From: Pseudomonadota bacterium | GTDB taxonomy: Bacteria; Pseudomonadota; Alphaproteobacteria; Rhodobacterales; Rhodobacteraceae | Direction of reading: 5' to 3' | NCBI GenBank assembly: GCA_039822045.1 | Contig: JBCBMY010000021.1 | Location: 35,298-99,297 of the forward strand | Length of the DNA: 64,000 nt | Shown here: in pieces, positions 20,839-38,433 of the stretch | Numbering within the stretch: position 1 is the first letter of the stretch | Layout: the number at the start of each line of letters is the position of its first letter | Made by a program: the position numbers and the translations under genes | Notes under the pieces: model-generated | The model's database searches: none | Told to the model about the DNA's origin: nothing | The model's input: only the letters and a program-made list of their open reading frames with translations

Positions 20839-22922
20839 GGCGTCTCCCCCTGGGTTGATGTCAGCACATAGACGCCGGTTTCGTGCAACTCCGCCGTCCA
20901 TCCTTCGGTGAGGAGGATCGTCGTCGTTTCTTCCTCTATGACAGCGGGAGCGGTAACCCGGTCTCCGGCGCCGAGACGGTTGCCATCGTAGACCGTTGCC
21001 TGCGTCGGAGACCCGTCGGCCGAAAGAACGATGTTTCGGCGTTCCTTGACGGCTGCCTCAACGCCGTCTGAAGCCGGCAAGCTGATTTGCGCGGGCTTCT
21101 CGATCCGGCCATAGATCGCGCTTTCGACGTTCACAACCTCGACGGCGTTGTGCGGCTCCGCATAGGTGTAGAGCTCCTCATGGCGGGTGTGGAAGGCATT
21201 GCGGATTTCGCCGAGATTGGCCTCGTCGATCTCCATGTCGCCGATATCCACCGTGCATTCGTGGACCTGGCCGACATAGCGCATGTCGAGCGCGCGTTTG
21301 ATATCGATCCGGTCGCGCGAGAAGCCGTCCTCCGCAAGGTCCGAGATGCCGCGCTGCTCGATGTCGCCGAAGGTCCGCGCGAGAGCAGTGGCCGTTTCGG
21401 CACCTTCGAGGCGCGCCGGAAAGGGAGCCATGTAGTTGTACTTCACATCCGATATGATTTGACCGTACGCGCAAAGCCCAGAGGCCAGTTTTGGGATCAG
21501 GATCGTTTCGATCCCCATATCGCGCGCCAGCGCCGTGATATGCGCGCCGGTGGCCCCGCCGGCGCCGACGAGCACGAAGTCGCGAGGATCGTCGCCGCGC
21601 TCGACCGACACGCGGCGGATGCCGTTGACCATGTTGGCGTTGACGATGGTGTACATCCCAAATGCGGCCTGCTCGACGCTGAGGCCCAGCGGATCGGCGA
21701 CGTGGGTCTGGATTGCGCTGCGCGCTTTTTCCACATCGAGCGGCAGGCGGCCCCCGATCAAACCGCCGGGATTGAGGTAGCCCAGCACCAGGTTGGCGTC
21801 CGACACTGTCGGGCGCGCGCCGCCTTGCCCATAGCAGGCCGGGCCCGGATCGGCCCCCGCGCTTTCCGGGCCCATCTGCAAAAGGCCCATCTCGTCGATC
21901 CGGCCGATCGAGCCGCCGCCGGCGCCTAGTGTCTCCACCTGGATCATCGGCACGCCGAGGCGGTATCGTAGGAAGTCGATATTCTTGGCGATGTTGCTGA
22001 CGCCGTTCTTGGTGAGCGTGATGTCGAACGACGTACCGCCCATGTCGACCGTGATGATGTTGGTCTTCCCAAATGGCCCGGCGACGTGCAGGCCGGCCTG
22101 CGGCGCCGAGGCCGGGCCGGAATTGATAGCGTAGACCGAACGGTCCGACAGCACGTCGCCGACGGCCAGCCCGCCGTTCGACTGGAAGAACCGGACGGCG
22201 CTGCGCGCGCCGAGCTCCCGGAAGTACCCGTCGACCGCATCGACATAGGTGCGCAGGACGGGGCCGAGATAGGCGTTCACCACCGCGGTCGACGTGCGGG
22301 TGTACTCACGCACCTGGGGGTAGAGTTCCGATCCTAGGGTCAGGAGTGCATCGGGCATCATCTCGGCCACGATCTTTCCCGCACGCCGCTCATGATCGGG
22401 GTTGAGGACCGACCATACAAACGAGACGGCCACCGATTGCACGCCCTCCTCTAGGAACAGCTCGCAGGCGGCGCGCACGTCATCCTCGCTCATCGGCGTA
22501 CGGACGGCGCCGGTGGAGATCACACGCTCGCGGACGCCCCGGCGCAGATAGCGGTCGACCAGCATGGTGGCGGGCGGATAGTCGGCATCATAGCGATAGC
22601 CGTCTTCCTTGTGGCCCAGGCGAATTTCGAGGCTGTCTTCGTGACCCGCGGTGCAGATAAGGCCCGTCGGCGCGCCCTTGTGCTGGATCAGCGCGTTCAA
22701 AGCGACCGTCGTGCCGTTGATGCAGAGATCGGCGTTGGAGACCAGATCCTCCGGGCTCACGCCGGTTGCCTCGGCCATCTGGGCTAGCCCGTTCCGGATC
22801 GCCTGCGTCGGGTCTTCCGGCGTGGACAGTGCCTTGAAGAGAGACACGGGGCCGTTGTCTTCGGCCAGTACGAAATCGGTGAAAGTGCCGCCGGCATCGA
22901 TGCCGAGCCTGTACTTTGCCAT
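20835..22922 (-). CDS. hyuA: hydantoinase/oxoprolinase A family (HyuA; N-methylhydantoinase A / acetone carboxylase beta-like)
   Basis: MAKYRLGIDAGGTFTDFV is the Hydant_A N-terminus. It is followed by the hydantoinase-A core, 695 aa in total. Confidence 0.85.
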   Translation of the reverse strand: MAKYRLGIDAGGTFTDFVLAEDNGPVSLFKALSTPEDPTQAIRNGLAQMAEATGVSPEDLVSNADLCINGTTVALNALIQHKGAPTGLICTAGHEDSLEIRLGHKEDGYRYDADYPPATMLVDRYLRRGVRERVISTGAVRTPMSEDDVRAACELFLEEGVQSVAVSFVWSVLNPDHERRAGKIVAEMMPDALLTLGSELYPQVREYTRTSTAVVNAYLGPVLRTYVDAVDGYFRELGARSAVRFFQSNGGLAVGDVLSDRSVYAINSGPASAPQAGLHVAGPFGKTNIITVDMGGTSFDITLTKNGVSNIAKNIDFLRYRLGVPMIQVETLGAGGGSIGRIDEMGLLQMGPESAGADPGPACYGQGGARPTVSDANLVLGYLNPGGLIGGRLPLDVEKARSAIQTHVADPLGLSVEQAAFGMYTIVNANMVNGIRRVSVERGDDPRDFVLVGAGGATGAHITALARDMGIETILIPKLASGLCAYGQIISDVKYNYMAPFPARLEGAETATALARTFGDIEQRGISDLAEDGFSRDRIDIKRALDMRYVGQVHECTVDIGDMEIDEANLGEIRNAFHTRHEELYTYAEPHNAVEVVNVESAIYGRIEKPAQISLPASDGVEAAVKERRNIVLSADGSPTQATVYDGNRLGAGDRVTAPAVIEEETTTILLTEGWTAELHETGVYVLTSTQGETP

Positions 22923-22938
22923 CGTGGATCCCTCGCCT

Positions 22939-24699
22939 TCAGGCCGCGCCGGCGCGCTGGCGTGCGGCAGCCGTTGCAGCCTCGTCGACCGCGAGTGTAT
23001 CGGGATCACCGATCACGACGCCGTAGTCGGACTTCGCTCCAGCAATCGATACCAACCCGTTGCGGACATCCGAAACGACCTTGTCGATGTCGCGCTCGAA
23101 GGGATCGCCGAAGCCCCCGCCGCCCGGGTTCATGTTGGCGGCACGGTCGCCGGGCCGGATCGTCTCGATCACGTTCTGCTTGATCGTCTGGGTCTCGCCG
23201 CTGCGGGTGATCTCGAGGCGACCGACTTTCGGTTCGACCAGCGTGGACTCGGCCCCCCGGGCCCCTTTGGCCGGAATGCGGCGACCCTCGCCGAAGGTGA
23301 TGAACGTCATGTCGCTGTCGAGCGGCTCGACCTCCCAGCAAGTGCCGGAGCCACCGCGGAACTTACCGGCCCCCCCGGAATCGGTCATCAGAGAATAGCG
23401 GTGAATGATGATCGGGTAGGAATGCTCCAGAAGTTCGATATCGCCCGAGGTCAGCGCGCCGAAACAGCATTCCGGGCCGACCGCATGCCACCCGTCCTGG
23501 CTGTGGGTCGCGCCGGCACCTGAGATGATGGAGGCGAGAACCATCGTTACGTATTCCTCGTCGTGCCGATTGTCCCAACCGGCGATGTTGCAGCCGTTGG
23601 CGTGCCCCCAACTGGCCGACACGCGGTCCGGCGCCGCTTTCTCGAAGGCGAGGCGCACGGCGTCGGTCAGCGTCTCCATCGGCGTTGTCGTGCAATTGGC
23701 ATGCGGCGCGGGCGGCTTGGCGTTACAGAGCGTGCCCTTGGGCCCCATATCGACGGTCACACAGCGATAGAGCCCCTCATTGTAGGGGGGCGGAAGCTGC
23801 GCAAACATCATCAGCCCAAGATACACGCCCGAATAGCTGTTCCCCTCATAGGAATTGATGAAGTACGGGATCTGCGGCGGGCTATCTATGGCGATGTGGC
23901 AGGTGTCATCCTTGATGTCGACGGTGGCGGTGATCTCGAAGTCGCCGAACCCGTGCCCGGCATCTTCGAGCACGGCGAGGCCGCTATAGGTGCCGTTGGG
24001 CACGTCGCGGATCAGCGAGCGCATATGCTTGTCGGCCATGTCCATCAGCACATCGATGCACGCCTTGACCTCGTCCACGCCGTATTTGTCGAGCAGCGCG
24101 ATGAGGTTGCGGGCGCCGACCTGACAGGCGCCGATCAGCGCATTGAAATCGCCTTCCTGATCGCGGCGCGCGCGCATGTTGGTCAGCAGCATGTTGAGGA
24201 TATCGTTGCGGGGCTTGCCTTCGTCCCAGATCTTGATCGGCGGGATGCGCAGCCCTTCGGCATAGATCTCCTTGGCATCGGGATTATAGCCGGCCGGGAC
24301 CGGGCCTCCGATATCGGTCAGGTGCCCCTTGCAGACGGTCCAGAAGACCAGCTCCCCTTCGTAGAACACCGGCCAGTACATGCAGGTGTCGATAACGTGG
24401 CTGCCGGCATAGTCGGGGTCGTTGTGCAGGATCAGGTCGCCCTCGCGCACGTCGCCCTCGAAGTAGGTCCAGACCGCCTTCATCGCCGGGATCAGGCTGC
24501 CGAGATGGATCGGGATATCTTGCCCCTGCAGGATCATCTCGGGCGTCGCGTTGAAGAGCGCGGTCGAATAGTCGTGCGCGAGGTTGAACACGCTCGATCG
24601 TGCCGTCTTCTCCAGGGACACGGTCATCTCGCGTTGGGTGGTTTCGAGGACGCCGCGCACGACGCTCAAAGTGATCGGGTCCACGTCCTTCAATGTCAT
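22939..24699 (-). CDS. hyuB: hydantoinase B/oxoprolinase family (HyuB)
   Basis: MTLKDVDPITLSVVRGVLE... is a Hydantoinase_B N-terminus. 586 aa, located upstream of hyuA. Confidence 0.85.
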   Translation of the reverse strand: MTLKDVDPITLSVVRGVLETTQREMTVSLEKTARSSVFNLAHDYSTALFNATPEMILQGQDIPIHLGSLIPAMKAVWTYFEGDVREGDLILHNDPDYAGSHVIDTCMYWPVFYEGELVFWTVCKGHLTDIGGPVPAGYNPDAKEIYAEGLRIPPIKIWDEGKPRNDILNMLLTNMRARRDQEGDFNALIGACQVGARNLIALLDKYGVDEVKACIDVLMDMADKHMRSLIRDVPNGTYSGLAVLEDAGHGFGDFEITATVDIKDDTCHIAIDSPPQIPYFINSYEGNSYSGVYLGLMMFAQLPPPYNEGLYRCVTVDMGPKGTLCNAKPPAPHANCTTTPMETLTDAVRLAFEKAAPDRVSASWGHANGCNIAGWDNRHDEEYVTMVLASIISGAGATHSQDGWHAVGPECCFGALTSGDIELLEHSYPIIIHRYSLMTDSGGAGKFRGGSGTCWEVEPLDSDMTFITFGEGRRIPAKGARGAESTLVEPKVGRLEITRSGETQTIKQNVIETIRPGDRAANMNPGGGGFGDPFERDIDKVVSDVRNGLVSIAGAKSDYGVVIGDPDTLAVDEAATAAARQRAGAA

Positions 24700-24799
24700 C
24701 TGAGCTGATCCCCCCGGGCTCGCAATATGTCGAATCGGTTCACCATAGACCGGCGTCCTGCCCATACGTCAGGGAAAGTTTGTAATGGCCGGCGGGGCG

Positions 24800-25723
24800 T
24801 CAGGCCGGGCGGGACAGGGCAACGGAACTCTGAGGGGCGCCAAAAAGGCTGCGGAAATAGTAGCGGAACGCGTTCATGACGGGGGAGAACTCGTTGTTGC
24901 GGCACCAGACAAGCCCGACCTCCATCGCCGGAATTGGCTCGCGGAGGTCGGCCACTTCGATGCGGCGCCCTTCTAGCGACCAGGGCCGATAGACCATGTC
25001 GGACAGGATCGAGACGCCCTGACCATTTGCAACGATGCTGCGCACGGCTTCGATCGACGAGGTGCGCAGCAACACGTTGGGCTGGAGCGACGTGGGCGCC
25101 CAATACCGCATCGCCGTGTGGGCTGCTTCGTCGACGGTGAGCATGACATACGGTTCGCGCGCGACATCGGCGAGGCCGAGCGTTTCGCGCTCCAGAAGCG
25201 GGTGGCGCGAGGGGAGCCACAGCCGGCGGGGGGAGCTGAGCAGCGTCTCCTTCGCGATGGCATGGTTCGATATGTTGGATGTCAGCGCGACACCGATATC
25301 GATCTGCCCGTCGAGCAGGGCGTCCTCCAGGGCTTGCCGGGTCATCTCCCGGACGCGCAGCGTGACCTCGGGCATCACTCGGCTCAGCCGGTCGAGATGT
25401 ACCGGAAGAAAGTAGCCGATGACGGTGTACGAGGCCGCGAGCCGCAACTCTCCGGTCAAGGCGACGGTATCGGCGGCCTGGAGGGACTCTTCGACCTTTG
25501 CCACGATCTCGTAGCCCGACGCGAGAAAGCGCCGCCCTGCCTCGGTGAGCGCCATGCCGTGCGACGAGCGGGTGAAGAGCTGAGTCCCAAGTGTTGCCTC
25601 CAGCTCGCGGATCGCGGCCGTGACGGCGGATTGGGACACCGACAGTTCAATCGCCGCGCGGCTGACTTGGCCGAGCTCTGCGGTGGCAATGAAGTATCTC
25701 AGGTGTCTGAGATTGTAGGACAT
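24800..25723 (-). CDS. LysR-family transcriptional regulator
   Basis: [24 protein letters not shown] is a LysR HTH, followed by a substrate-binding domain. It is divergent from the LamB/YcsF operon across a 125-bp intergenic region. Confidence 0.85.
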
Positions 25724-25848
25724 GTGCGGACCTTCGCGGCAGGCAGCGGCTCCTATCAGTTTTTCAGATATCTCAGCCGCAGAAAAAAGAACTTCTGCTG
25801 AGTGCGAATTCGCCGCACCCTTTGCCAGCACAACGGGGTGGACATGCT

Positions 25849-26628
25849 ATGTACCGGTCGACGGTGGATCTCAACTGCGACATGGGCGAAGGCTTTGGCC
25901 ATTGGGCGTATGGTGATGCCCCCGACAGTGCCCTGATGCCCCTGATCAGCTCGGCCAACGTCGCGACGGGATACCATGCCGGCGACCCTAACCAGATGGA
26001 CGCCGTCGCCCAAATGGCCGCAGAGCACGGCGTCGGCCTTGGGGCGCATCCGGGATACCATGACCTGCAGGGGTTTGGTCGACGTACGATTGCCGCCAAG
26101 CCGGAAGAGCTGGTGAACGATATCCTTTACCAGACGGGGGCGCTGCGTGAGTTCGGGCGGCGCCACGGCGTGGCGCTGCAACATGTGAAACCGCATGGCG
26201 CGCTCTACATGACGGCTGCGAAGGATCCGGAGTTGTCCCGCCAGCTGATCGAGGCGCTCCACAAAACCGGCCCCGACTTGTTCATTTTCTGCATGTCGAT
26301 TTCCGAGACGTACCGGATCGCCAAAGAGTCCGGTCAGCCGACGGTGCGAGAATTCTATGCCGACCGCGATTACGACGCGTCTGGCTCCATTGTCTTTGCC
26401 CGAAAGATGCGCCCGCTCGAGCCGCAGGAGGTGGCAGAGAAGTGCGTGCGGGCGTGCCAGGAGGGCATGGTGCGCACCGTCGACGGCGAGGACATCAAGA
26501 TCCCGTTCGAGTCGATCTGCTTTCACTCGGACACGCCCGGCGCGCTTCAGATCGGCACTGCAATCCGTGAGGCGCTGCTGGCCAGTGGCGTCACCATCGC
26601 ACCGCCAAGCCACGGCGGCCCAACCTGA
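25849..26628 (+). CDS. pxpA: LamB/YcsF family protein (5-oxoprolinase subunit A-like, PxpA)
   Basis: [17 protein letters not shown]..., with N.DMGE being the family signature. The ATG at 25849 was chosen over the TTG start given in the track. Confidence 0.85.
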
Positions 26629-26713
26629 CGCGGCGCGCAGTCCGGCGCCTCGACCGCCACGCAACGCCCGGTGCCTCCGCGCAGGCCCAAATGCACAATG
26701 AAGGAATGCAGCT

Positions 26714-26950
26714 TTGGCAAAACAAATACAGTCTCCACTTCCGGGCACCTTCTATCGCAAGCCGGCCCCGGACCAACCGCCCTTTGTTGAGGATGGCGCG
26801 AGCGTGGCGGTCGGCGACGCGATTGGCCTCGTGGAAGTGATGAAGACCTTCCACGAGGTGAAGGCCGAGGTCGCGGGCGAAAATGTGCGCTTCAAGGTGG
26901 CCAACGAAGAGCCGGTGATGGCGGGCGCCGTGCTGGCCGAACTCGACTGA
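26714..26950 (+). CDS. biotin/lipoyl-attachment (BCCP-like) small protein, 78 aa
   Basis: A TTG start is preceded by the RBS AAGGAA. The biotinyl-domain core is GLVEVMKTFHEV, with Lys in an EVMK context. It has the hammerhead layout of AccB C-terminal domains. Confidence 0.65.
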   Translation: MAKQIQSPLPGTFYRKPAPDQPPFVEDGASVAVGDAIGLVEVMKTFHEVKAEVAGENVRFKVANEEPVMAGAVLAELD

Positions 26951-26953
26951 CCG

Positions 26954-28318
26954 ATGTCTCCCTCCGGCAAGACCCTTTTCATCGCCAATCGCGGCGAGAT
27001 CGCCGTTCGGATCAACCGGGCGGCGCGCGACCTGGGGATGCGGGTGGTGCAGGCGCATTCCGACGCCGACACGGACATGCTGGCGGTGCGGTTGGCCGAC
27101 GAGGCGGTGAATGTCGGGCCCCCAGCCGCCACCAAGTCCTACCTCGATATCGAGCGGGTGGTCGAGGCGGCGCGTGTGTCGGGGGCCGACGCCGTTCACC
27201 CGGGATATGGATTTTTGGCCGAGAATGCTGGCTTTGCCGAGGCGGTCGAGGCGGCTGGGATGATCTTTGTCGGGCCGCAAGCGGCCACCATTGCGCGCAT
27301 GGGCGACAAGGTGGCGGCGCGAGACGCGGCAATCGCGGCGGGCGTGCCCATTGCGCCGGGCAGCGATGGCGCCCTGGACGGGCTCGACGAAGCCCGGGCC
27401 GTTGCCGCGCGCATTGGGTATCCGGTGATGATCAAGGCGGCCGCGGGCGGCGGCGGGCGGGGCATCCGGGTGGCCGAGACCGATGACGATATGGCCCGTC
27501 TGATCCCGCAGGCTCAGACCGAGGCCGCCGCGGCCTTTGGTGATGGCAGCCTCTATCTGGAACGGATGGTCACCAACGCGCGCCATGTTGAGGTTCAGAT
27601 TCTCGGCGACGGCACCCGCGCCATCCACCTTTTCGAACGCGAGTGCTCGCTGCAGCGGCGCCGCCAGAAAGTCTGGGAGGAGGCCCCGGCGGCCTGCCTG
27701 AGCGACGCAGCACGCGCCCACGTCTGCGCGGCCTCGGTGCGCCTGGCGGAGGCGGTTGGCTATCGCGGCGCAGGGACGCTGGAGTTTCTCTACGAGCCCG
27801 CGCGCGACGCCTTCTACTTCATGGAGATGAACACACGCATTCAGGTGGAGCACCCGGTGACCGAGATGATCACCGGAATCGACCTGATGCACGAGATGAT
27901 CCACGTGGCATTCGGGGCGCCCCTGCGCCTGACCCAAGACGACATTGCCATGTCGGGTCATGCGATCGAGGTGCGCGTGAATGCCGAAGACCCGTCCAAT
28001 GGGTTCATGCCGTTTCCGGGCGTGGTCGGCGCGATGCACGTGCCGTCGGGCATCCGCTTTGATACGATGCTCTACGAGGGCTATGCGATCCCGCCCTTCT
28101 ACGACTCTCTTCTGGGGAAGCTGATCGTTCACGGCACCGACCGCTCGGACGCGCTGGCGCGTCTTGGAACCGCTCTGTCCGAGATCCGCCTTGAGGGGCT
28201 GAAGACAACTCTGCCGCTCTTTCGGGTGCTGTCGGAGGAAGCGGCCGTTCGCGACGACGCGCTGAGCACGGCCTTTCTGGAGCGCTGGCTTGAAACCAAC
28301 ACCATCCCGCCCGGCTGA
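26954..28318 (+). CDS. accC: biotin carboxylase (AccC-like ATP-grasp)
   Basis: The pattern IANRGEIAVRI..., the ATP-grasp and biotin-carboxylase C-terminal domains, and the EMNTRIQVEHPVTE motif are present. Confidence 0.9.
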   Translation: MSPSGKTLFIANRGEIAVRINRAARDLGMRVVQAHSDADTDMLAVRLADEAVNVGPPAATKSYLDIERVVEAARVSGADAVHPGYGFLAENAGFAEAVEAAGMIFVGPQAATIARMGDKVAARDAAIAAGVPIAPGSDGALDGLDEARAVAARIGYPVMIKAAAGGGGRGIRVAETDDDMARLIPQAQTEAAAAFGDGSLYLERMVTNARHVEVQILGDGTRAIHLFERECSLQRRRQKVWEEAPAACLSDAARAHVCAASVRLAEAVGYRGAGTLEFLYEPARDAFYFMEMNTRIQVEHPVTEMITGIDLMHEMIHVAFGAPLRLTQDDIAMSGHAIEVRVNAEDPSNGFMPFPGVVGAMHVPSGIRFDTMLYEGYAIPPFYDSLLGKLIVHGTDRSDALARLGTALSEIRLEGLKTTLPLFRVLSEEAAVRDDALSTAFLERWLETNTIPPG

Positions 28319-28363
28319 TCGCGGCAGGAGAAGGCCGCGGGCGCGGCAAGGAGGCGAGACACG

Positions 28364-29239
28364 ATGAAGACCAGGTACTCATTCGGGGGCGACGAACATA
28401 TCTTCGTCGAGGTCGACGAGGAAATGTCGCTCGACGCGTTCTTCAAGAGCCTGTCGATGACCAACGCTGTCCGCGATAGCCAGATCAAGGGCGTGACCGA
28501 GATCTGCCCGGCAAACGCCTCGTTCCAGATCAAGTTCGACCCCGATCAGATCAGCCCGGACGACATGCTGGCCGAGCTGAAAAAGCTCGAAGGCGCTGCG
28601 GAATCGGCCGAAAAGCGCATTCCGTCCCGGATCATTGAGATCCCGGTCTATTACAACGACCCGTGGACACATGAGACGCTGATGCGCTTCCGCGAACGGC
28701 ACCAGGATCCGTCGGGCACCGACCTGGAATATGCCGCCCGGATCAATGGCTTCGACACGGCCGAGGCCTTCATCACCGCGCACCATTCGAACCCGTGGTT
28801 CGTTTCGATGGTCGGCTTCGTCTCGGGCCTTCCGTTCCTCTATCAATTGGTGGATCGCCCGCGTCAGCTTGAGGTGCCGAAGTACCTGCGCCCGCGCACG
28901 GACACGCCGAAGCTGACCGTGGGCTATGGCGGCTGTTTCTCGTGCATCTACTCAGTCCGCGGCGCGGGCGGCTATCAGATGTTCGGGATCACGCCGATGC
29001 CGATCTACGACCCCGAGCAGAAGGTGAGCTATCTCACCGACTTCATGGTGCTTTTCAATCCAGGCGACATCGTGAAGTGGGCGCCGATTGACCGCGAGGA
29101 GCATGATGCGATCGCGGCCTCGGTCGAGGCCGGCACCTACAGGCCCAAGATCGTCGATGTCGAGTTCGATCTCGATGCGTGGAACGCCGATATCGACGGC
29201 ACGAACGCCAAGCTGATGGAGGCTCTCAATGGGCGTTAA
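28364..29239 (+). CDS. pxpB: KipI / allophanate hydrolase subunit 1 / 5-oxoprolinase subunit B family
   Basis: A cyclophilin-like AHS1 domain with conserved spacing. It overlaps pxpC by 11 nt. Confidence 0.75.
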   Translation: MKTRYSFGGDEHIFVEVDEEMSLDAFFKSLSMTNAVRDSQIKGVTEICPANASFQIKFDPDQISPDDMLAELKKLEGAAESAEKRIPSRIIEIPVYYNDPWTHETLMRFRERHQDPSGTDLEYAARINGFDTAEAFITAHHSNPWFVSMVGFVSGLPFLYQLVDRPRQLEVPKYLRPRTDTPKLTVGYGGCFSCIYSVRGAGGYQMFGITPMPIYDPEQKVSYLTDFMVLFNPGDIVKWAPIDREEHDAIAASVEAGTYRPKIVDVEFDLDAWNADIDGTNAKLMEALNGR

Positions 29240-30200
29240 GGTCATCAAGCCCGGTCTGCTGACGACCATTCAGGACCTGGGCCGCCCGGGATATTTCCAC
29301 CTTGGCATCCCGATCGGCGGGGCGATGGACCGGCTTGCCCTGCGCGCGGCCAACCTTCTGGTGGGCAATGACGAGGGCGCGGCAGGTCTTGAAGCCGTGT
29401 TCATGGGGCCGGAGCTGGACTTCACCCAGGATGCCGTGATCGCCGTAACCGGGGCCGATATGCCCATCCTGATCGACGGGGATGAGCAGCCGGGATGGAC
29501 CGCGCTCCAGATCAAGGCCGGCCAGACTCTGTCATTTGGGTATCTCAAGACCGGCGCGCGCGCCTACATCGCGATTTCGGGCGGCATCGATACGCCATTG
29601 GCGCTTGGGTCGCGTTCGACCTATGCGATCGGCGCGCTCGGCGGTGTCGGGGGCCGGGCCATCGCTGCGGACGACACGCTTCCCGTCGGCGACGCCGGCG
29701 CGGCCAAGATCGGCGCGAGCGTACCAGAGGCGCTGCGGGGCGGGCCGGGTAGCCCGGCGGAGCTGCGGGTCCTTCCCGGTCTCTATTGGCACCGCATCAC
29801 CGAGACGGCTCAGAAGAACTTCTTCGATGACGAGTGGGCGGTTGCGCCTGAGGCGGATCGCATGGGCTATCGCTTTCGCAACGGACGGCCGCTGGAGTTC
29901 GTGGAGCGAGAGCAGCCGTTCGGTGCGGGTTCGGACCCGTCGAACATCGTCGACGGATGCTATCCCTATGGCTCGATCCAAGTGCCCGGCGGCACCGAGC
30001 CGATCGTTCTGCACCGCGATGCGGTGTCGGGTGGCGGCTACTTCATGATCGGCACGGTCATCTCGGCCGATATGGACCTGATCGGGCAATTGCAGCCGCA
30101 CATGCCGGTGAAGTTCATTGAGGTCGATATGGACACCGCCTTGACGGCCCGCGCCGACCGGACAGCGGGGCTGCAGAGCATCCGAGCGTCTCTCGAATGA
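29229..30200 (+). CDS. pxpC: KipA / allophanate hydrolase subunit 2 / 5-oxoprolinase subunit C family
   Basis: An AHS2 domain (GPGSPAELRVLPG, MGYRF..G). Its stop overlaps the next start (ATGA). Confidence 0.75.
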   Translation: MGVKVIKPGLLTTIQDLGRPGYFHLGIPIGGAMDRLALRAANLLVGNDEGAAGLEAVFMGPELDFTQDAVIAVTGADMPILIDGDEQPGWTALQIKAGQTLSFGYLKTGARAYIAISGGIDTPLALGSRSTYAIGALGGVGGRAIAADDTLPVGDAGAAKIGASVPEALRGGPGSPAELRVLPGLYWHRITETAQKNFFDDEWAVAPEADRMGYRFRNGRPLEFVEREQPFGAGSDPSNIVDGCYPYGSIQVPGGTEPIVLHRDAVSGGGYFMIGTVISADMDLIGQLQPHMPVKFIEVDMDTALTARADRTAGLQSIRASLE

Positions 30201-31495
30201 CCGTGGGCGCGGGCGACGCAGGTCGGAAACGGGCGGCGGGCCCGGCCGCTCCTGGCGTGCGTCGCCCGCGCCAGCCCCTCCGAGTGCTCGGCACATCGGT
30301 CACGCAGACGCCTGCAATGAAGCGGGCTGCCGAGGAAGACCTTGGCATGGCGCTTGACTTCATCACGCTCGATGGGACCGAGGCGCAACGCCAGGGCGCC
30401 CTGCAACCCGCGAGCTTTGACGTCTATGACCAGTGGTTTCACGATATCGACCTGATCTGGCCGACGGGCTCGATCCGCCCCATCGATGTCTGCCGGATTG
30501 CCCGCTGGGACGAGATCAACGACCTGCCCAAAACCGGCCGGCTGCGCCCTGACCTGCCCAAGGCGCAGGGCGGCGATCCGTCAAAGCGCCTCTTCGTGCA
30601 GCTTGACGGGACGCTGGGCGACACCCCGTCGGCCCGGGTCAGCATGGTGCCGACGGTACATAATGCCGACAGTTTCGTGGTGACGGGCGAGGAACCGGAG
30701 AGCATTGCCAGCTGGGCGGCGCTCCTCGAGCCGAAACGTGCCGGGCAGGTTGTGCTTCAAGCCGACGCCGCGATCGGCGCGCTTGACATGCTGCTGGCGC
30801 TGCAGGCGCGGGGCGAGATGCAGGCGCTCGACATCGGGGACCTGACGCTAGAGCAGATCGATGCGCTGACCGAGCGGCTCGCCGACTATGTCCGCACGGG
30901 CCACTTTTGCGCCGTGTGGTCCGACGAGGCCGAGGCCGTTGCCGCCATGCTTGGGGGACACCCCCGGATTGGCTCGATGTGGTGGTCGGGCGTCACCAAG
31001 CTGCGCGCGGCTGGGATCAAGGCCAATATGGTGACGCCGCGCGAGGGCTATCGTGGATGGTTCGGGGGGCTGGCCCTGTCGGCCGCCCTGCAGGATTGGG
31101 CCCGTGACGCGGCCTACGACTATATCAACTGGTGGCTCGACGGCCGCCCCGGCGCGATGATGGCGCGTTCCGGAGCATACATGGCCAACTCCGGCACGGT
31201 TCGCGCCTCGTTGCCGGAGGCGGAGTGGGACTTCTGGTACGGTGGACAGCCGGCCCGGGTGCCGATCCGCGACTGCGATGGCGTTACCTTGTTCGACGTT
31301 GGCGAGCGACGAGAGGGCGGGGAGTATCATCGCCGCATGTCCCGCGTGCGCGTCTGGGATACGGTGATGAACGAACATAACTATCTTGTCCGACGCTGGC
31401 AGGGCGCCTTGGCGGGCACGCTCGCACGGCTTGGCGTCATTGCTTCTGAAGATAGCCGGGCAGGTCTGGTTCCGGAAAGACCGAGAGCGCTATGA
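30197..31495 (+). CDS. PotD/PotF-like solute-binding-fold protein lacking a signal peptide (probably cytoplasmic)
   Basis: It shares blocks with the bona fide SBP at 37137 (FDVYDQW vs YDVWE, REGYRGW vs KEGYRAW, DYINWWLDG vs DYWLSG). The first 40 residues are Arg/Ala/Pro-rich with no hydrophobic h-region, and an alternative ATG at 30317 also lacks a signal peptide. It is translationally coupled to pxpC. The 3' end overlaps the convergent GntR gene by 59 nt. Confidence 0.6.
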   Translation: MTVGAGDAGRKRAAGPAAPGVRRPRQPLRVLGTSVTQTPAMKRAAEEDLGMALDFITLDGTEAQRQGALQPASFDVYDQWFHDIDLIWPTGSIRPIDVCRIARWDEINDLPKTGRLRPDLPKAQGGDPSKRLFVQLDGTLGDTPSARVSMVPTVHNADSFVVTGEEPESIASWAALLEPKRAGQVVLQADAAIGALDMLLALQARGEMQALDIGDLTLEQIDALTERLADYVRTGHFCAVWSDEAEAVAAMLGGHPRIGSMWWSGVTKLRAAGIKANMVTPREGYRGWFGGLALSAALQDWARDAAYDYINWWLDGRPGAMMARSGAYMANSGTVRASLPEAEWDFWYGGQPARVPIRDCDGVTLFDVGERREGGEYHRRMSRVRVWDTVMNEHNYLVRRWQGALAGTLARLGVIASEDSRAGLVPERPRAL

Positions 31496-32447
31496 GCCGT
31501 TGCCGCGTTCGTTCAGCTGAGAGGCGGATATGTTCCTCAAGGCACTGAGCCGCGGCCTCGACCGACCCGCGCATCACGAAATCGAGAACAATCGCGTGTT
31601 CACGCAGGGCAATCTCGAACGGATGGGTCCCGACCTGGCGGGCGAAGGCGTCGTTGACCACGAAGGCCAGCTGCGTCTGCCGCACCATGCGCAGCAAGTG
31701 CGGGTTCGTCGACCGCGACAGCAGGCGCACATGGATGTCGATCTCGAGCTCGTCGAACCCTGCGGCATCGAGGGGTTTGTCGCCGGTCATTGCGGCATCG
31801 AGCTCTTGCCGCATGCGCATGATCTCATCGAGCGGCACATGGGGAACACTGTCGAGCAGGGCCAGCGGCTCGAGCTTGCTGCGCACGACGAAGAAGTGCG
31901 CCACATCGCGCGCCGTCAGTGGGCCCACCACCCAGTGCGATCGGCGATCCTTACGTACGACGCCGCGATCCTGAAACCGCGCGAGCAGGTCGCGGACAAT
32001 GTTGCGGCTGACGCCGAAATGGTCGGCCGCGAGCTGTTCGTTGATCCGGAACAGCCCAAAAGGCAATGCGTCGGTGAGGCTCTGCTCGAAGGCCCGCTCG
32101 ATCAGCTCCGCCGATCCGGGCCGGGGCTCGGCGGCCTGGGCGGGGTCGAGACCCAGCATGGCGCGCGTGAGCCTCACCCGCGTTGGCTCCACGCCGGTTG
32201 GACCGCTGACGACAAAGCCGCGCCCGTCGAACCGCGCAACAAGACCGCCTTGAAGGAGTTGTGCAAACGCGGTGCGGACCGGGGTGCGGCTTGTCCCAAA
32301 GAGGGCCGCGACCTTGCCTTCGGTCAGGACCGTTCCCTCGCCCAACGCCCCCCCCTCGATCGCAGCCGCAAGGATGCGCTCGATTTCCACGTAGTGGGGT
32401 GCTGGCCGCAGGCGCGGATCCTCAAATTGGGACAGCTTGTCGTGCAT
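31437..32447 (-). CDS. GntR-family regulator with two tandem N-terminal winged-helix domains plus an FCD-like C-terminal domain (336 aa)
   Basis: The first HTH is LTEGKVAALFGTSRTPVRTAFAQLLQGGLV. The second is INEQLAADHFGVSRNIVRDLLARFQDRGVV. It is divergent from the ABC operon starting at 32687. Confidence 0.8.
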   Translation of the reverse strand: MHDKLSQFEDPRLRPAPHYVEIERILAAAIEGGALGEGTVLTEGKVAALFGTSRTPVRTAFAQLLQGGLVARFDGRGFVVSGPTGVEPTRVRLTRAMLGLDPAQAAEPRPGSAELIERAFEQSLTDALPFGLFRINEQLAADHFGVSRNIVRDLLARFQDRGVVRKDRRSHWVVGPLTARDVAHFFVVRSKLEPLALLDSVPHVPLDEIMRMRQELDAAMTGDKPLDAAGFDELEIDIHVRLLSRSTNPHLLRMVRQTQLAFVVNDAFARQVGTHPFEIALREHAIVLDFVMRGSVEAAAQCLEEHIRLSAERTRQRLIALSVFPEPDLPGYLQKQ

Positions 32448-32686
32448 AGGATGGTCCTGCCTGTGGCGCCTTTCTTCCGAGCCCTGAACTCGATTATACG
32501 GCACTTCGTCGACGAAAGACATTTTTTTGGCGATGACTTCCCGGGCAGAGCCCTAGTTTACGGCGCCGACTTCCGCAGCAATCCGTGCTTCTCGGAGAAA
32601 ATTTTTGACTTTTGTATGCGGTGCGCACACCCTTGGGCCCATACCGGGGGTCTGCGAAGATACAGCAGCGGGGGTGGCGCCGCGTC

Positions 32687-33790
32687 ATGATGGAGTTGGT
32701 CGGTCTCTCGAAGGCCTTCGAGGGCAAACCCGCGGTCGTGGGGCTGTCGCTCAGGGTGGAGGATGACGAGTACCTCACACTGCTCGGACCATCAGGATCG
32801 GGAAAGACGACACTTCTGCGCCTCGTGGCTGGTCTGGACCGCCCGGATTCGGGGCGGATCGTTCTGAATGGCGAGGACATCACTGCGCGCCCGACCCACT
32901 TGCGCGGCCTTGGGTTCGTTCAGCAGAACTACGCGCTCTTTCCGCACTTTTCCGTCGAAGAGAACATAGCCTTCGGGCTACAGAACCGGGTTGTCGACCG
33001 CATCGAGGATGGCGCAGAGCTTCGCCGGCGGGTCGGAGACATGCTTGAGCTGGTGGGACTGGAGGGCCTTGGCGGCCGTACGGTTGGCCAGATCTCGGGC
33101 GGACAGAAGCAGCGCGTCTCGCTGGCGCGGACGCTTATCACTGAGCCCAAAGTCTGCCTGCTGGACGAACCGCTGGGCGCGCTCGACGCCAATCTGCGAG
33201 AGCGGATGACGGTGGAGTTGCGCACGATCCGGCGCCAGCTGGGGGTGACCTTTTTCCACGTGACGGGAAACGAGCACGAGGCGATCGCGATGGGCGACCG
33301 GATGATCGTGCTCGATGCAGGCCGCGCGATCCAGGTCGACGCACCCGACACGGTGTTTGACCGGCCCCGCACGGTGCGTGTGGCGAAGTTCGTCAACAGC
33401 TACAACGTGCTGGAAGGCGGCGTGACCGACGGGCTGTTCCGGCATGGCGATGTGCGGGTACCCGTTCCACCCGGTGCCTTGTCAGCCCGCTACATCGCCG
33501 TGCGCTACGACCTGCCGAGGATCGAGGCCGAAGATGCCACGGTGGGAGAAGGACGCGTGGGCACGCGCGCGACCTTCATGACAAGCGAGTTCATGGGCAG
33601 CAAGGTGGTGTACTTCTTCCGGGCCCCGGACGGCGCCATGCTCGAGGTCGAGCGCCATCTGAGCCAGTCCGATCCCGAGACGATCCCCGAGGGTGAGACT
33701 CGCTTCCTGAGCTGGCGGGTGCCTGAGACGCTGTTCTTCGACGATGCCGGCGACCGTCTCGAGCCGACCGGCCTGCAAGGTGCGGCCTGA
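32687..33790 (+). CDS. ABC transporter ATP-binding protein (PotA-like), copy 1
   Basis: Walker A GPSGSGKTT, signature ISGGQKQRVSLAR and Walker B LLDEP are present. A C-terminal TOBE-like domain is present. The start is MMELVGLS at 32687. Confidence 0.85.
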   Translation: MMELVGLSKAFEGKPAVVGLSLRVEDDEYLTLLGPSGSGKTTLLRLVAGLDRPDSGRIVLNGEDITARPTHLRGLGFVQQNYALFPHFSVEENIAFGLQNRVVDRIEDGAELRRRVGDMLELVGLEGLGGRTVGQISGGQKQRVSLARTLITEPKVCLLDEPLGALDANLRERMTVELRTIRRQLGVTFFHVTGNEHEAIAMGDRMIVLDAGRAIQVDAPDTVFDRPRTVRVAKFVNSYNVLEGGVTDGLFRHGDVRVPVPPGALSARYIAVRYDLPRIEAEDATVGEGRVGTRATFMTSEFMGSKVVYFFRAPDGAMLEVERHLSQSDPETIPEGETRFLSWRVPETLFFDDAGDRLEPTGLQGAA

Positions 33791-34701
33791 TGGTTGCGGC
33801 AAGCCCGGATCACACGGTGGCCACGACGTCGCTCGAGACACCCCGCGAGTCTTTCTGGGCACGCAACCGCCATCTGCTGCTCCTTGCGCCGGGTGTGCTT
33901 TGGATGCTGCTGTTCCTTGTCGTGCCGCTGCTGATGATGGTCTATGTCAGCTTTTGGACGCAGACGACATTTGCCATCAGCCCCGACCTGACGACGCAGA
34001 GCTGGCAAAACTTCTTCGCGTCGGAGACCTATTTCGGCGCGCTTCTGCGAACGTTGCGCATCTGGCTCATCGTTCTGGCGCTGACCTTCATCGTCGGCTA
34101 TCCGACCGCACTCTTCATCGGGCAGTTCGTGCGCAACAAGACGTTGCAGACGGTTCTGCTGGTGGCTTGCGTCATCCCGTTCTGGACGTCGTTTCTGATC
34201 CGCGTGCTCGCTTGGCGCCCGATGCTCGGGAGGGAGGGCGCGATCAACATCGTTCTGCAGCAGTTTGGGTTGATCTCGGAGCCGATCGAAGTCCTGCTTT
34301 TCACCGAGCTCTCGGTGATCATTGGCATGGTCCAGATCTACGTGGTGTTCATGGTGGGCCCGATCGCCTTCATGCTCGCCCGGATCGATGAGAGCCTGAT
34401 CGAGGCGGGTCGGGACCTTGGCGCCTCCGCCTGGACGATCTTCCGCAAGATCATCTTTCCGCTCAGCCTGCCCGGCGTCGTCGTCGGCGCGATTTTCGTC
34501 TCGGTTATGGTGTTGGGCGAGTTTGCAACCGCCTCGGCCCTGTCGGGGCGCAAGGTCAACCTATTGGGGAACATCATCGTCACGCAGGTTGGCTCGCTCA
34601 AATGGGCGTTTGCGGCCGTCGTGGGTGTGATCCTGACAATCGTGATGGGCATCGTGATCACTGGGCTTCTGCGGGTCGTGAACCTGCGGCGCGAGTTGTA
34701 G
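33790..34701 (+). CDS. ABC transporter permease (PotB-like)
   Basis: Six TM helices and the EAA-like loop IEAGRDLGASAWTIFRKIIFPL. The start overlaps the stop of the upstream gene. Confidence 0.85.
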   Translation: MVAASPDHTVATTSLETPRESFWARNRHLLLLAPGVLWMLLFLVVPLLMMVYVSFWTQTTFAISPDLTTQSWQNFFASETYFGALLRTLRIWLIVLALTFIVGYPTALFIGQFVRNKTLQTVLLVACVIPFWTSFLIRVLAWRPMLGREGAINIVLQQFGLISEPIEVLLFTELSVIIGMVQIYVVFMVGPIAFMLARIDESLIEAGRDLGASAWTIFRKIIFPLSLPGVVVGAIFVSVMVLGEFATASALSGRKVNLLGNIIVTQVGSLKWAFAAVVGVILTIVMGIVITGLLRVVNLRREL

Positions 34702-34714
34702 GAGGGCGCGGGCG

Positions 34715-36318: not shown

Positions 36319-36341
36319 GCGCGATTGAGGGGGATGATCGC

Positions 36342-37094: not shown

Positions 37095-37136
37095 GCCGGC
37101 AGATCTGCGGTCCAACTTCTTACAGGGAGTAGAAAG

Positions 37137-38348: not shown

Positions 38349-38433
38349 CGGCCCTTGTTCAGGCCGGAGGGGGCCCCGCGCGGGCCCTTTCCGCGGCTGC
38401 GGCCCTGCCCTTCACCCCTGAGGTACCAAAGGA

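Follow-up and report, generated by a model that had tools for sequence, protein, structure and literature searches.

Fungal LamA is a urea-carboxylase-like protein in its architecture. The genes lamA and lamB function in lactam catabolism and are co-regulated with the GABA genes gatA and gabA (PMC8016842). In P. putida the PxpABC paralog PP_2920-2 is a butyrolactam hydrolase (bioRxiv 10.1101/2021.12.09.472016), and caprolactamase was found to require bicarbonate and a carboxy-lactim route was proposed for it (PMC8453981). It was also demonstrated that MSMEG_0435, a PxpC-type protein, binds the biotin of a BCCP domain (PMC13012033).

A gene block that can be compared with these systems lies within the 64,000-nt stretch of DNA analysed here, referred to as the window, which originates from a marine alphaproteobacterium. 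Domains were assigned with Pfam and NCBIfam models and NCBIfam matches were judged against the model cut-offs. The block, on the plus strand, begins with a PxpA/LamB-YcsF hydrolase subunit (25849..26628; PF03746, E 1.5e-87; subfamily model NF003814 passed, 293 vs 226) and continues with a stand-alone biotin carboxyl carrier of 78 aa with biotinyl-lysine K44 (26714..26950; Biotin_lipoyl; NF005457 passed, 119.8 vs 87) and a full-length biotin carboxylase (BC) of the ATP-grasp type (26954..28318; NF009471 passed, 712 vs 686). These are followed by the two carboxyltransferase genes, encoding a PxpB/KipI-like protein of 291 aa with subdomains C-D (28364..29239; PF02682, CT_C_D, the old AHS1/KipI family) and a PxpC/KipA-like protein with subdomains A-B (29229..30200; PF02626, CT_A_B, AHS2/KipA; TIGR00724 passed, 257 vs 230). 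The sixth gene (30197..31495, plus strand), with a weak SBP_bac_8 match, encodes SBPc, a cytoplasmic PotD-fold protein which is a signal-less paralog of a transporter solute-binding protein (SBP). There is an 11-nt overlap between pxpB and pxpC, and the stop codon of pxpC shares the sequence ATGA with the start of SBPc. The TTG start of the 78-aa carrier is real: it is preceded by a GAAGGA ribosome-binding site, the nearby ATG is out of frame, homologs align with the N-terminus read from TTG and the biotinylation motif V-M-K44 does not vary among them. The six genes, their overlaps, the TTG-started carrier and a divergent LysR gene had all been described in the earlier note, and each was confirmed by the Pfam and NCBIfam searches and by inspection of junctions and starts.

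The LysR-family regulator (24800..25726, minus strand, true start 25726; Pfam HTH_1 and LysR_substrate) is retained next to pxpA in relatives. The intergenic region carries a dyad, GCAGAA-N8-TTCTGC (25779..25798), which occurs once in the window and whose k-mers are common to 7-13 of 18 orthologous intergenic regions; it constitutes a candidate LysR box. In the same orientation as LysR, and 35 nt downstream of it, lies the gene for a caprolactamase beta equivalog, CapB (22939..24765, minus strand; NF050157 passed, 1115 bits vs 1000), followed by that of the alpha equivalog CapA, of the hydantoinase A family (20835..23009, minus strand; NF050156 passed, 1203 bits vs 1000; Pfam Hydantoinase_A). 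Further genes for hydrolases and a reductase are located on the plus strand beyond SBPc, namely an amidase-signature enzyme (39632..41050; PRK06102 equivalog, NF004766 passed, 580 vs 559), a second hydantoinase A/B pair (41087-43180 and 43177-44964), an isochorismatase-family hydrolase (44997-45704) with a small ORF next to it and an OYE flavin reductase (46163-47428), the last three assigned with both Pfam and NCBIfam. Hyu-type pairs were found in 16 of 30 carboxylase-positive loci. The amidase gene lies within about 1 kb of SBPc in many lineages, adjoining it or with one small gene between.

The block of divergent LysR and pxpA-BCCP-BC-pxpB-pxpC is present on many plasmids, of Rhizobium, Roseateles, Acidiphilium and Aestuarium, and in one haloarchaeon, Haladaptatus, and dedicated NCBI models already exist for it, the PGAP name of the PxpC-like protein being 'biotin-dependent carboxyltransferase family protein'. 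Contrary to what the earlier note had supposed, the gene composition is thus not unusual. PxpA occurs in all 26 loci carrying BC and PxpB, and the five enzyme genes co-occur obligately from Alphaproteobacteria to haloarchaea. The six-gene order including SBPc recurs in at least 24 species genomes; the possibility that this exact arrangement is common and already characterised was therefore borne out for its recurrence and not for its characterisation, as our literature search found no biochemical characterisation of the five-gene type and no known substrate for the six-gene order.

Scores and structural relatives of the subunits provide some insight into the enzyme type. BC matches P. aeruginosa AccC (2c00) with 496 bits and its catalytic motifs align and are intact. 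The PxpB-like subunit scores 121 bits to the urea carboxylase model TIGR02712 against 71 to the PxpB model TIGR00370, which it failed (cut-off 145.55), and it carries a urea-carboxylase-type C-terminal extension. Among solved chains it is closest to that of K. lactis urea carboxylase (3va7); the alignment covers residues 2-273, nearly the full length, and extends past the region matched by YbgJ. The PxpC-like subunit, in contrast, lies slightly nearer to E. coli YbgK (167 bits) than to urea carboxylase (139-140 bits), and it failed the PxpC equivalog NF045499 (210 vs 500). An ordinary 5-oxoprolinase (PxpABC) with acetyl-CoA carboxylase genes beside it by chance, as PGAP-style names such as '5-oxoprolinase subunit PxpA' and 'acetyl-CoA carboxylase' would imply, is accordingly highly improbable: both Pxp carboxyltransferase subunits fall below their equivalog cut-offs, the stand-alone carrier is under the cut-off of the AccB model TIGR00531 (69.3 vs 115.2), accA/accD are absent and the five genes are inherited together over the phylogenetic range given above. 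The proposal of the earlier note, that one biotin-dependent enzyme acts on a cyclic amide, remains the most economical reading, given the invariable presence of PxpA alongside BC and PxpB.

Genes 25849-30200 are best read, by analogy, as the bacterial equivalent of fungal LamA and LamB, split into separate subunits, and the operon probably opens lactam rings with ATP. Biotin on the 78-aa protein would be carboxylated by BC, which would consume ATP and bicarbonate. The PxpB/PxpC-like carboxyltransferase would then move the carboxyl group onto the lactam, at the N or O of its amide, in the way that urea carboxylase carboxylates urea. PxpA would hydrolyse the activated N-carboxy-lactam and the carbamate formed would then lose CO2, yielding the net reaction lactam + ATP + H2O -> omega-amino acid + ADP + Pi; this carboxylation-then-hydrolysis route is drawn by analogy only. 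The gene surroundings include lactamase and omega-amino-acid genes. In Aestuarium, the operon is followed by genes for a TorT-type ABC transporter and an XRE regulator and then, at a distance of about 4.5 kb, by a GABA transaminase gene and gabD. This GABA-gene context was seen in the one relative only, and the window itself has no more than a class-III aminotransferase, 11 kb away. A BioY biotin transporter gene is found within the operon at two loci (L012 and L013).

Alternatively, the five genes could constitute a split carboxylase of urea, guanidine or a small amide, whose stable N-carboxylated product would pass to the amidase-signature enzyme for hydrolysis, as in a urea amidolyase, with PxpA in a side role. 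The good scores of the carboxyltransferase subunits to urea carboxylase are consistent with this, R. leguminosarum homologs were earlier guessed to be urea carboxylase, and some SBPc loci contain DUF1989 'urea-carboxylase-associated' genes. Moreover, an ortholog of the amidase is commoner in carboxylase-positive loci (18/30) than in carboxylase-negative ones (9/50). However, the amidase was rejected as an allophanate hydrolase by both models (188 vs 487 and 168 vs 511) and, with 472 aa, it is shorter than either (563-600 positions). PxpA is invariable, whereas genuine uca loci are not known to carry it; a search for a guanidine or ykkC riboswitch found none, and the gene surroundings favour lactamases and omega-amino-acid genes over urea. 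We consider the urea or guanidine carboxylase unlikely and retain the lactam-opening enzyme.

SBPc carries no signal peptide and none is hidden upstream, where an in-frame stop lies 26 codons before the start with only a polar stretch between, in agreement with the earlier note. A leader, of median length 22 aa, precedes the first strand (114/120 homologs), and in none of these homologs does it contain an RR motif together with a hydrophobic core, such that the protein is cytoplasmic family-wide. The claimed paralogy to the exported SBP at 37137 was also upheld: the two proteins align over their full length (393 aa, 25% identity, E 2e-34), from just past the TRRGVM signal of the exported one. 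The AlphaFold model has a PotD fold, as 'PotD-like' had implied.

The steadiest neighbour of SBPc is a GntR regulator, not pxpC: GntR adjoins SBPc in 39 of 43 close relatives, and pxpC lies directly upstream in 21/37 close and 3/23 distant relatives. In the window, the GntR/FCD gene (31437..32522, minus strand; Pfam GntR, HTH_Crp_2 and FCD), which encodes a second winged-helix region, is convergent with SBPc, which it overlaps by 59 nt, and divergent from an ABC transporter operon. A 386-aa plus-strand ORF at 31530-32690 was rejected as a gene, being a shadow of the GntR/FCD gene. The transporter operon (32687..39546, plus strand; Pfam and NCBIfam) encodes an ATPase, two permeases, two SDR oxidoreductases (35569-36318 and about 36340-37094), the exported SBP with its RR signal (37137-38348) and a second ATPase (38434-39546); synteny of this operon with SBPc and GntR was found in 49 of 80 loci. 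Upstream lies an AT-rich box, TTTGACTTTTG (32604..32614, plus strand), a candidate GntR operator half-site which is unique in the window and shared by 19-24 of 37 orthologous intergenic regions. In loci L012 and L017 the box forms a dyad, TGACTTT-N8-AAAGTCA, and in L002 an imperfect one with one right-arm mismatch.

A natural GntR-SBPc fusion, P0125, of 753 aa, occurs on 5 contigs from several samples, its N-terminal half being 38% identical to the window GntR (E 1e-57) and the other 41% to SBPc (E 5e-90), and a second, independent GntR-FCD-SBP fusion is P0238. From the natural fusion we infer that SBPc is most likely the ligand-sensing partner of GntR, a pairing that may be likened to AmiC-AmiR and to NasS-NasT, for which there is published precedent (PMC3795266). 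Against this role, fusions are rare (two among the best-scoring 150 family representatives listed), transcription of SBPc in the window goes with the operon on the LysR side, the region upstream of pxpA yielded no GntR-type box and, since GntR/FCD regulators possess a ligand domain of their own, an extra sensor is not obviously needed.

The earlier note had proposed SBPc as a cytoplasmic ligand-binding or substrate-delivery component of the biotin complex. Its cytoplasmic, signal-less nature stands, but its dedication to the carboxylase, coupled to pxpC for stoichiometric assembly, is very unlikely. The ATGA junction, the 24 genomes with pxpC immediately upstream and the constant placement of SBPc at the 3' end of a hydrolase module would all suit such a subunit; however, 50 of 80 SBPc loci, including those of Pantoea and Leisingera, have no carboxylase nearby, and in L012 and L017 pxpC is separated from SBPc by an inserted amidase or BioY gene. 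The carboxylase operon also occurs without adjacent SBPc in Rhizobium and Roseateles (SBPc 10 kb off, or none seen in a 9-kb flank) and in Aestuarium and Haladaptatus (none in flanks of 9-12 kb). In other lineages SBPc comes after a CobW-type GTPase or a polysaccharide deacetylase (PDA). In Rhizobium, Pantoea and Leisingera it is the GTPase that precedes SBPc, in operons that also encode a PDA; in two of these operons the transporter is of the MFS or NCS1 type and an ABC system is lacking. These genera, together with Burkholderia and Lichenihabitans, share the order PDA-hyp110-CobW-SBPc, with a 4-nt CobW/SBPc overlap only in Rhizobium; the PDA-hyp110-CobW module is absent from the window, and its place there is taken by the PxpA-carboxylase module. 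The PDA and LamB_YcsF hydrolase folds are related, and this replacement raises the possibility, which we judge unlikely, that SBPc is an enzyme or metal-handling accessory on a binding-protein fold, acting in ring opening with the CE4-type deacetylase, CobW and the 110-aa protein or, here, with PxpA. The family's many invariant His, Asp, Glu, Tyr and Trp residues at 65% mean identity, and the iron-binding proteins FbpA and FutA among the fold matches, are compatible with it, but fusion to a transcription factor argues for sensing, signature motifs in common with the transporter SBP suggest an organic ligand, and the methods used mapped no catalytic or metal site.

Overall, the observation in the earlier note was confirmed and its interpretation supported in part, the exceptions being gene composition and the SBPc role. 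The joint reading, a five-subunit biotin-dependent, ATP-driven lactam-opening enzyme with SBPc as ligand sensor of the GntR module, has in our estimation slightly less than an even chance of being correct. SBPc would be a cytoplasmic duplicate of the transporter SBP and part of a GntR-controlled uptake and catabolism module, rather than an enzyme subunit, and most likely its ligand inside the cell would be the transported compound, or one closely derived from it, whose binding it would signal to GntR/FCD. The divergent LysR would probably control the operon together with the adjacent caprolactamase genes, and our best guess for the natural substrate is a small lactam or related N-heterocycle, which the two SDRs would make from an imported amine or amino alcohol.

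The gene content of the region was determined from an ORF listing combined with Pfam and NCBIfam scans. On the forward strand, PxpA of the LamB/YcsF family (25849-26628), a 78-aa biotinyl carrier protein (BCCP; 26714-26950), a full-length biotin carboxylase (BC; 26954-28318), a PxpB-like CT_C_D protein of the former AHS1/KipI family (28364-29239) and a PxpC-like CT_A_B protein of the former AHS2/KipA family (29229-30200) are encoded consecutively, and they are followed by the gene for a 432-aa protein with a weak SBP_bac_8 match, here denoted SBPc (30197-31495). The intergenic gaps from pxpA to pxpB are, in order, 85, 3 and 45 nt, pxpB and pxpC overlap by 11 nt, and the pxpC stop overlaps the SBPc start in an ATGA. 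The cluster is bordered on the reverse strand by a LysR gene (24800-25726), whose start at 25726 is backed by homology, and by a GntR/FCD regulator gene (31437-32522) whose 3' end overlaps the SBPc gene by 59 nt. Apart from the GntR gene, these genes and junctions agree with those described in an earlier note, of which the observation is confirmed and the interpretation, a single biotin-dependent complex with SBPc as a cytoplasmic ligand-binding or substrate-delivery component, is only partly supported. The TTG start that had been proposed for the carrier is genuine: the neighbouring ATG is out of frame and GAAGGA lies 5' of the TTG. The N-terminus of the carrier and its invariant V-M-K44 also align with homologs from Rhizobium, Roseateles, Aestuarium and a haloarchaeon. 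Two long ORFs were rejected as genes, one of 386 aa at 31530-32690 (+), antisense to the GntR gene, and one of 1175 aa at 39626-43153 (-), antisense to real genes; neither has a Pfam match, and such shadow ORFs are typical of high GC and mislead gene picking by longest ORF.

All the Pfam domains of the BC, CT (A-B and C-D) and BCCP modules were found, with an invariant biotinyl-lysine motif and intact BC motifs. PxpA matches PF03746 (E 1.5e-87) and passes the subfamily cut-off of NF003814 (293 vs 226), and BC passes a dedicated NCBIfam equivalog (NF009471, 712 vs 686) and retains the glycine loop, K238, E276, E288-N290-R292 and R338 when aligned with P. aeruginosa AccC. PxpB falls below the TIGR00370 equivalog (71.4 bits vs a cut-off of 145.55) and scores higher as urea carboxylase (121 bits) than with the PxpB model; its 291 residues align with the urea carboxylase of K. 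lactis at 2-273, whereas E. coli YbgJ spans only 117-241. PxpC falls below the NF045499 equivalog (210 bits vs 500), passes only the broader domain model TIGR00724 (257 vs 230) and is intermediate between YbgK (167 bits) and urea carboxylase (139-140 bits). On these scores the CT subunits are not bona fide PxpB and PxpC. Nor is the whole-protein model TIGR02712 passed, the split-gene scores being 511.5, 229.3, 121.4 and 19.1 for a cut-off of 1303.85 bits. A urea amidolyase system was rejected because the amidase of the locus (39632-41050, +) is below both allophanate hydrolase cut-offs (188 vs 487 for NF006043 and 168 vs 511 for TIGR02713); it passes NF004766, the PRK06102 model (580 vs 559).

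The composition of the block is, contrary to the earlier note, not unusual, since it occurs on many plasmids and in a haloarchaeon. A tblastn search with PxpB against 72,556 plasmids yielded relatives of 60-80% identity in 67 plasmid records, from Rhizobium, Acidiphilium, Roseateles and Aestuarium, together with a haloarchaeal copy of 52% identity. In every context inspected, BC, the small BCCP and PxpA cluster with PxpB, the BC and BCCP genes being interleaved on the bacterial plasmids and flanking in the haloarchaeon, and, among the 80 best of 202 genome loci, PxpA was present in all 26 that carry both BC and PxpB. A biotin-independent, three-subunit composition does not apply to the enzyme, because the genes for BCCP and BC are inserted after pxpA and before pxpB and coinherited with both. 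NCBI models specific to the small BCCP (NF005457) and to BC (NF009471) already exist, and PGAP labels the PxpC-like protein as a 'biotin-dependent carboxyltransferase family protein'. The five-gene enzyme is widespread and annotation pipelines already call it 'biotin-dependent', and no biochemical characterisation of it was found in the literature searched. Look-alike genes of R. leguminosarum, encoding AHS1/2 subunits and a biotin carboxylase, showed a fitness effect in nodules and were guessed to encode a urea carboxylase.

Several independent observations point to an enzyme that opens, at the expense of ATP, a lactam or a related cyclic amide. PxpABC enzymes are lactamases, the E. coli type being a 5-oxoprolinase and the P. 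putida paralog PP_2920-2 a butyrolactam hydrolase, as established by RB-TnSeq, deletion and complementation (bioRxiv 10.1101/2021.12.09.472016). The CapA and CapB genes beside the operon pass the caprolactamase equivalogs (1203 and 1115 vs 1000), and of 30 carboxylase-positive loci 16 hold a Hyu-type pair. Further downstream the window encodes a second hydantoinase pair along with an OYE reductase and an amidohydrolase of the isochorismatase type. On the Aestuarium plasmid, genes for GABA transaminase and gabD (succinate-semialdehyde dehydrogenase) lie about 4.5 kb 3' of the five genes, with a TorT-type ABC transporter and an XRE regulator standing between them. A class-III aminotransferase is encoded near the Haladaptatus copy and, in the window, at 13225-14673; none is adjacent to the window operon. 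Moreover, the PxpC-type protein MSMEG_0435 positions the biotin of a BCCP domain suitably for carboxyl transfer (PMC13012033), and in two metagenome-assembled genomes a gene for the biotin transporter BioY lies inside the carboxylase operon, between the amidase and SBPc (loci L012, 9096-9683, and L013, 1743-2330), a placement that fits a real need for biotin. We infer a mechanism of carboxylation followed by hydrolysis, in which BC would carboxylate biotinyl-BCCP, the CT pair would move the carboxyl group onto the lactam, PxpA would hydrolyse the activated ring and the resulting carbamate would decarboxylate.

Comparison with known enzymes places the five-gene system between established groups. 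It shares with PxpABC (YbgJKL of E. coli, the B. subtilis enzyme and PP_2920-2) a PxpA/LamB-YcsF hydrolase and PxpB- and PxpC-family proteins, and the known enzymes catalyse ATP-dependent lactam ring opening and are often encoded beside a dedicated regulator; however, the window operon carries the inserted BC and 78-aa BCCP, its PxpB and PxpC lie below the equivalog cut-offs and its PxpB bears a urea-carboxylase-like C-terminal extension. With urea carboxylase and urea amidolyase (K. lactis structures 3va7 and 5i8i) and guanidine carboxylase it shares the BC, CT A-B/C-D and BCCP modules and, as the expected chemistry, N-carboxylation of an amide as activation for hydrolysis, but the window modules reside on four polypeptides, PxpA is always present and an allophanate hydrolase is lacking. 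In A. nidulans, LamA is a urea-carboxylase-like BC-CT-BCCP protein, and LamB, which functions with it in the use of 2-pyrrolidinone, is a PxpA homolog. To our knowledge the fungal lam system has been defined genetically, without reconstitution. The fungal lamA and lamB genes serve lactam catabolism and are coregulated with GABA genes (PMC8016842), which may echo the GABA transaminase and gabD genes of Aestuarium, although the fungal system consists of one fused polypeptide plus LamB and has no attached GntR/SBPc module. LamA is not mentioned in a paper on the evolution of fungal urea amidolyase. The CapAB/OplBA and hydantoinase-oxoprolinase A/B enzymes, equivalogs of which are encoded beside the window operon, are likewise ATP-dependent lactam hydrolases, and caprolactamase requires bicarbonate and has been proposed to proceed via a carboxy-lactim intermediate (PMC8453981); these enzymes, however, belong to an unrelated protein family and do not use biotin. 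The five-gene enzyme would act as a hybrid of PxpABC and urea carboxylase, passing the membership tests of neither, and its composition would correspond, in split form, to that of LamA/LamB.

The absence of a signal peptide from SBPc withstood closer inspection. An in-frame stop lies 26 codons 5' of its ATG and the intervening stretch is polar; this and a leader test on homologs argue against a hidden upstream signal of the Sec, Tat or lipoprotein type. Since longest-ORF starts proved wrong and the first strand is itself hydrophobic, only the region preceding the conserved first strand RVLGTSVT, carried by 114 of 120 database homologs, was examined. In these 114 leaders the median length is 22 aa and the maximum 10-residue hydropathy 1.64, and an RR motif together with a hydrophobic core is seen in none of them. 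The leader of the exported paralog (37137-38348) is 40 aa long and includes TRRGVM and a hydrophobic stretch, and the alignment of that paralog with SBPc (25% identity over 393 residues, E 2e-34) begins directly past its signal. The paralogy noted earlier is thus upheld together with the missing signal, and SBPc is, on the evidence of these leaders, cytoplasmic across the family. An AlphaFold model (pLDDT 80.6), for which the best Foldseek match is 1pot (E 7e-16, TM 0.80 on target), shows a type II binding-protein fold, and identity to PotD/PotF is 12-19%. Within the family the mean column identity is 65%; some 100 positions do not vary at all, and Trp, His or Asp occupies many of these.

Relatives of SBPc were sought in one genome per species, yielding 202 loci of which the best 80 were analysed, and neighbours were defined by tblastn with all window proteins and by unbiased clustering of called genes. 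Relatives of at least 57% identity were taken as close; in them, the gene immediately upstream of SBPc is pxpC in 21 of 37 loci and the convergent gene downstream of it is GntR in 39 of 43, whereas pxpC precedes SBPc in just 3 of 23 relatives that are more distant. These counts speak against SBPc being a dedicated component of the carboxylase. Over the best 80 of the 202 loci, GntR is present in 63 and the ABC transporter with two SDRs and the exported SBP in 49, and a polysaccharide-deacetylase-family protein occurs in 38, a 110-aa protein without a known domain in 18 and a CobW/COG0523 GTPase in 14; an amidase-signature enzyme is also among the recurrent neighbours.

Annotated plasmids show these arrangements directly. 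On an R. leguminosarum plasmid a LysR gene, the block pxpA-BCCP-BC-pxpB-pxpC and a GntR gene are followed by ATPase-permease-permease-SDR-SDR-SBP-ATPase-deacetylase-hyp-GTPase-SBPc-amidase-cyclase, with a 4-nt overlap of the SBPc and GTPase genes. In Pantoea GntR adjoins deacetylase-MFS-SDR-SDR-hyp-GTPase-SBPc and in Leisingera NCS1-amidase-deacetylase-hyp-GTPase-SBPc, and neither operon contains ABC permease genes. Because these two operons lack an ABC importer, SBPc is not a transport component. Its partner in translational coupling varies by lineage: in the window, where a search for the deacetylase, 110-aa protein, CobW GTPase and cyclase of other loci gave no homolog, the PxpA-carboxylase module fills the slot directly 5' of SBPc that these genes occupy elsewhere. 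A CE4 deacetylase, the 110-aa protein, the GTPase and SBPc form a recurrent core (14679-20556 in the R. leguminosarum locus L087, 3752-10158 in locus L088 and 3790-10137 in locus L089), and this core is often joined by an amidase and a cyclase-family protein. The deacetylase has no specific NCBIfam name, scoring 83 vs 424 with the PuuE model, and there is likewise none for SBPc, the 110-aa protein or the cyclase.

A profile search for the SBPc family through 1.84 billion cluster representatives yielded two long proteins besides many paralogs with a signal and about eight clusters without one. The first of the long proteins, the 753-aa metagenomic P0125, joins a GntR-FCD regulator to an SBPc domain in a single chain: its N-terminal half matches the window GntR (38% identity over 318 residues, E 1e-57) and its C-terminal half SBPc (41% over 404 residues, E 5e-90). 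Five contigs from several samples and sources encode the same protein, which rules out an artefact of assembly, and its gene is surrounded by hydantoinase A/B, deacetylase and SDR genes. The other, P0238 (605 aa), also metagenomic, is a second and independent GntR-FCD fusion with a PotD-like domain. These natural fusions, with which 10001-12262 of locus L085 is listed, involve the regulator type of the window GntR, which is itself long (361 aa), with a second winged-helix-like region ahead of the FCD domain.

Synteny and natural fusion, which provide the best evidence on its function, suggest that SBPc is most likely an intracellular ligand-binding module acting with the GntR regulator. Against a role in sensing for GntR, FCD regulators already have a ligand domain of their own, the fusions are rare (two among the 150 best-scoring family representatives listed) and, in the window, SBPc is transcribed with the operon on the LysR side. 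Moreover, SBPc often directly follows the CobW GTPase, with overlapping genes in Rhizobium, so that it might instead take part in metal handling or in the hydrolase step.

Such a partnership has precedents. In the AmiC-AmiR system of the P. aeruginosa amidase operon a signal-less binding-protein homolog governs its partner regulator, and the fold of AmiC and NasS is unlike the PotD/PotF type of SBPc. NasS similarly controls its partner regulator NasT (PMC3795266). SBPc resembles AmiC and NasS as a signal-less homolog within a catabolic or assimilatory operon and in being encoded with a partner regulator, theirs binding a small molecule of the pathway and controlling that regulator; it differs in that the proposed partner is a GntR/FCD DNA-binding protein, whereas theirs is an ANTAR antiterminator, and in that its link rests on synteny and natural fusion. 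The R. leguminosarum locus contains, adjoining the island (L087, 23718-30609), an AmiC/AmiR-like set of binding-domain proteins, an ANTAR response regulator, a urea-type ABC transporter and an amidohydrolase, a textbook-style case of the sensor logic proposed for SBPc. With PotD and PotF, in which the first strand carries an aromatic and acidic motif, SBPc shares its fold and the weak SBP_bac_8 match, but it lacks a signal peptide or lipobox, carries RVLGTSVT in the first strand and is also found in loci without an ABC permease. The SBPc family is a previously unnoted group of cytoplasmic binding proteins linked to GntR regulators.

The carboxylase operon is one module of a mosaic catabolic island, in which a transporter and two SDRs are combined with amidases and at least one ring-opening system. 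The deacetylase occurs in 6 of 30 carboxylase-positive vs 32 of 50 carboxylase-negative loci and the amidase ortholog in 18 of 30 vs 9 of 50, counts that, given incomplete flanks, indicate a trend only. The deacetylase and carboxylase modules tend to replace each other across loci, and the amidase ortholog tends to go with the carboxylase; in Rhizobium all the modules are present. In a plausible, putative pathway an amine or amino alcohol would be imported and oxidised by the SDRs to a lactam or cyclic amide, the ring would be opened and the product deamidated. Genes for DUF1989 ('urea-carboxylase-associated') and for an NCS1 permease of the allantoin/cytosine type accompany SBPc in Marinobacter and Leisingera (loci L056, 11175-13174, and L089, 14131-14832), a hint that the ring processed by some forms of the pathway may resemble a ureide or guanidine.

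Elsewhere in the window, the arrangement at 41087-47428 (+), with the second hydantoinase A/B pair followed by the isochorismatase-family hydrolase and the OYE flavin reductase, recalls by analogy N-methylhydantoinase with N-carbamoylsarcosine amidase. At 13225-19643 the gene for the class-III (omega) aminotransferase is accompanied by glutamine-synthetase-like, glutamate-synthase-domain, GXGXG and GATase genes, a set that looks like an N-methylglutamate or gamma-glutamylamide pathway; a methylamine-releasing substrate, considered on the basis of the genes at 15340-19643, was set aside since these genes are not syntenic with the SBPc locus in relatives. The window also contains two tandem flagellin genes (3756-7454, -), two adjacent tRNA genes (57811-57961, -) and a patch of lower GC at 54001-56000 (0.54 vs about 0.64) that may mark an insertion.

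Two candidate operator sites, each conserved and present as a single copy in the window, lie in front of different operons. The dyad GCAGAA-N8-TTCTGC occupies 25779-25798 between LysR and pxpA, and the box TTTGACTTTTG is located at 32604-32614 upstream of the ABC operon (32687-39546, +). The latter extends to a dyad, TGACTTT-N8-AAAGTCA, in loci L012 and L017, is imperfect in L002 and is degenerate as a full dyad in the window, where this GntR-type box occurs only at the ABC operon and not upstream of pxpA or SBPc. These motifs suggest separate LysR and GntR regulons. The capA and capB genes (20835-24765, -) are co-directional with LysR and begin only 35 nt downstream of it, so that LysR, capB and capA may be cotranscribed, in the direction opposite to the pxpA operon. 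An Rfam scan of the whole window detected two tRNAs only and no riboswitch, for guanidine or otherwise, and within 24700-32800 no predicted sigma-70 promoter or terminator exceeded the shuffled background.

Taken jointly, it is a tentative and rather doubtful proposition that the five-gene enzyme is a biotin-dependent lactamase, representing a new reaction class, and that SBPc belongs to a new family of PotD-fold co-sensors docked on or fused to GntR/FCD regulators. Transient N- or O-carboxylation would then serve solely to activate an inert lactam for hydrolysis by LamB/PxpA. The gamma-, delta- and epsilon-lactams are chemically very stable, and the known lactam-opening enzymes spend ATP via phosphorylation-type chemistry. 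If true, a biotin route would carry the logic of urea amidolyase, carboxylation and then hydrolysis, over to lactams, would account for a gene set that is common in soil, plant-associated and marine bacteria and could offer possible biocatalysts and biosensors for nylon-type monomers; the enzyme is a 'known unknown' for which there is now a sharply testable hypothesis. SBPc, for its part, cautions against blanket annotation as 'extracellular solute-binding protein', and its family would illustrate how, by duplication of a transporter's binding protein and loss of the signal peptide, a regulator may gain the ligand specificity of that transporter.
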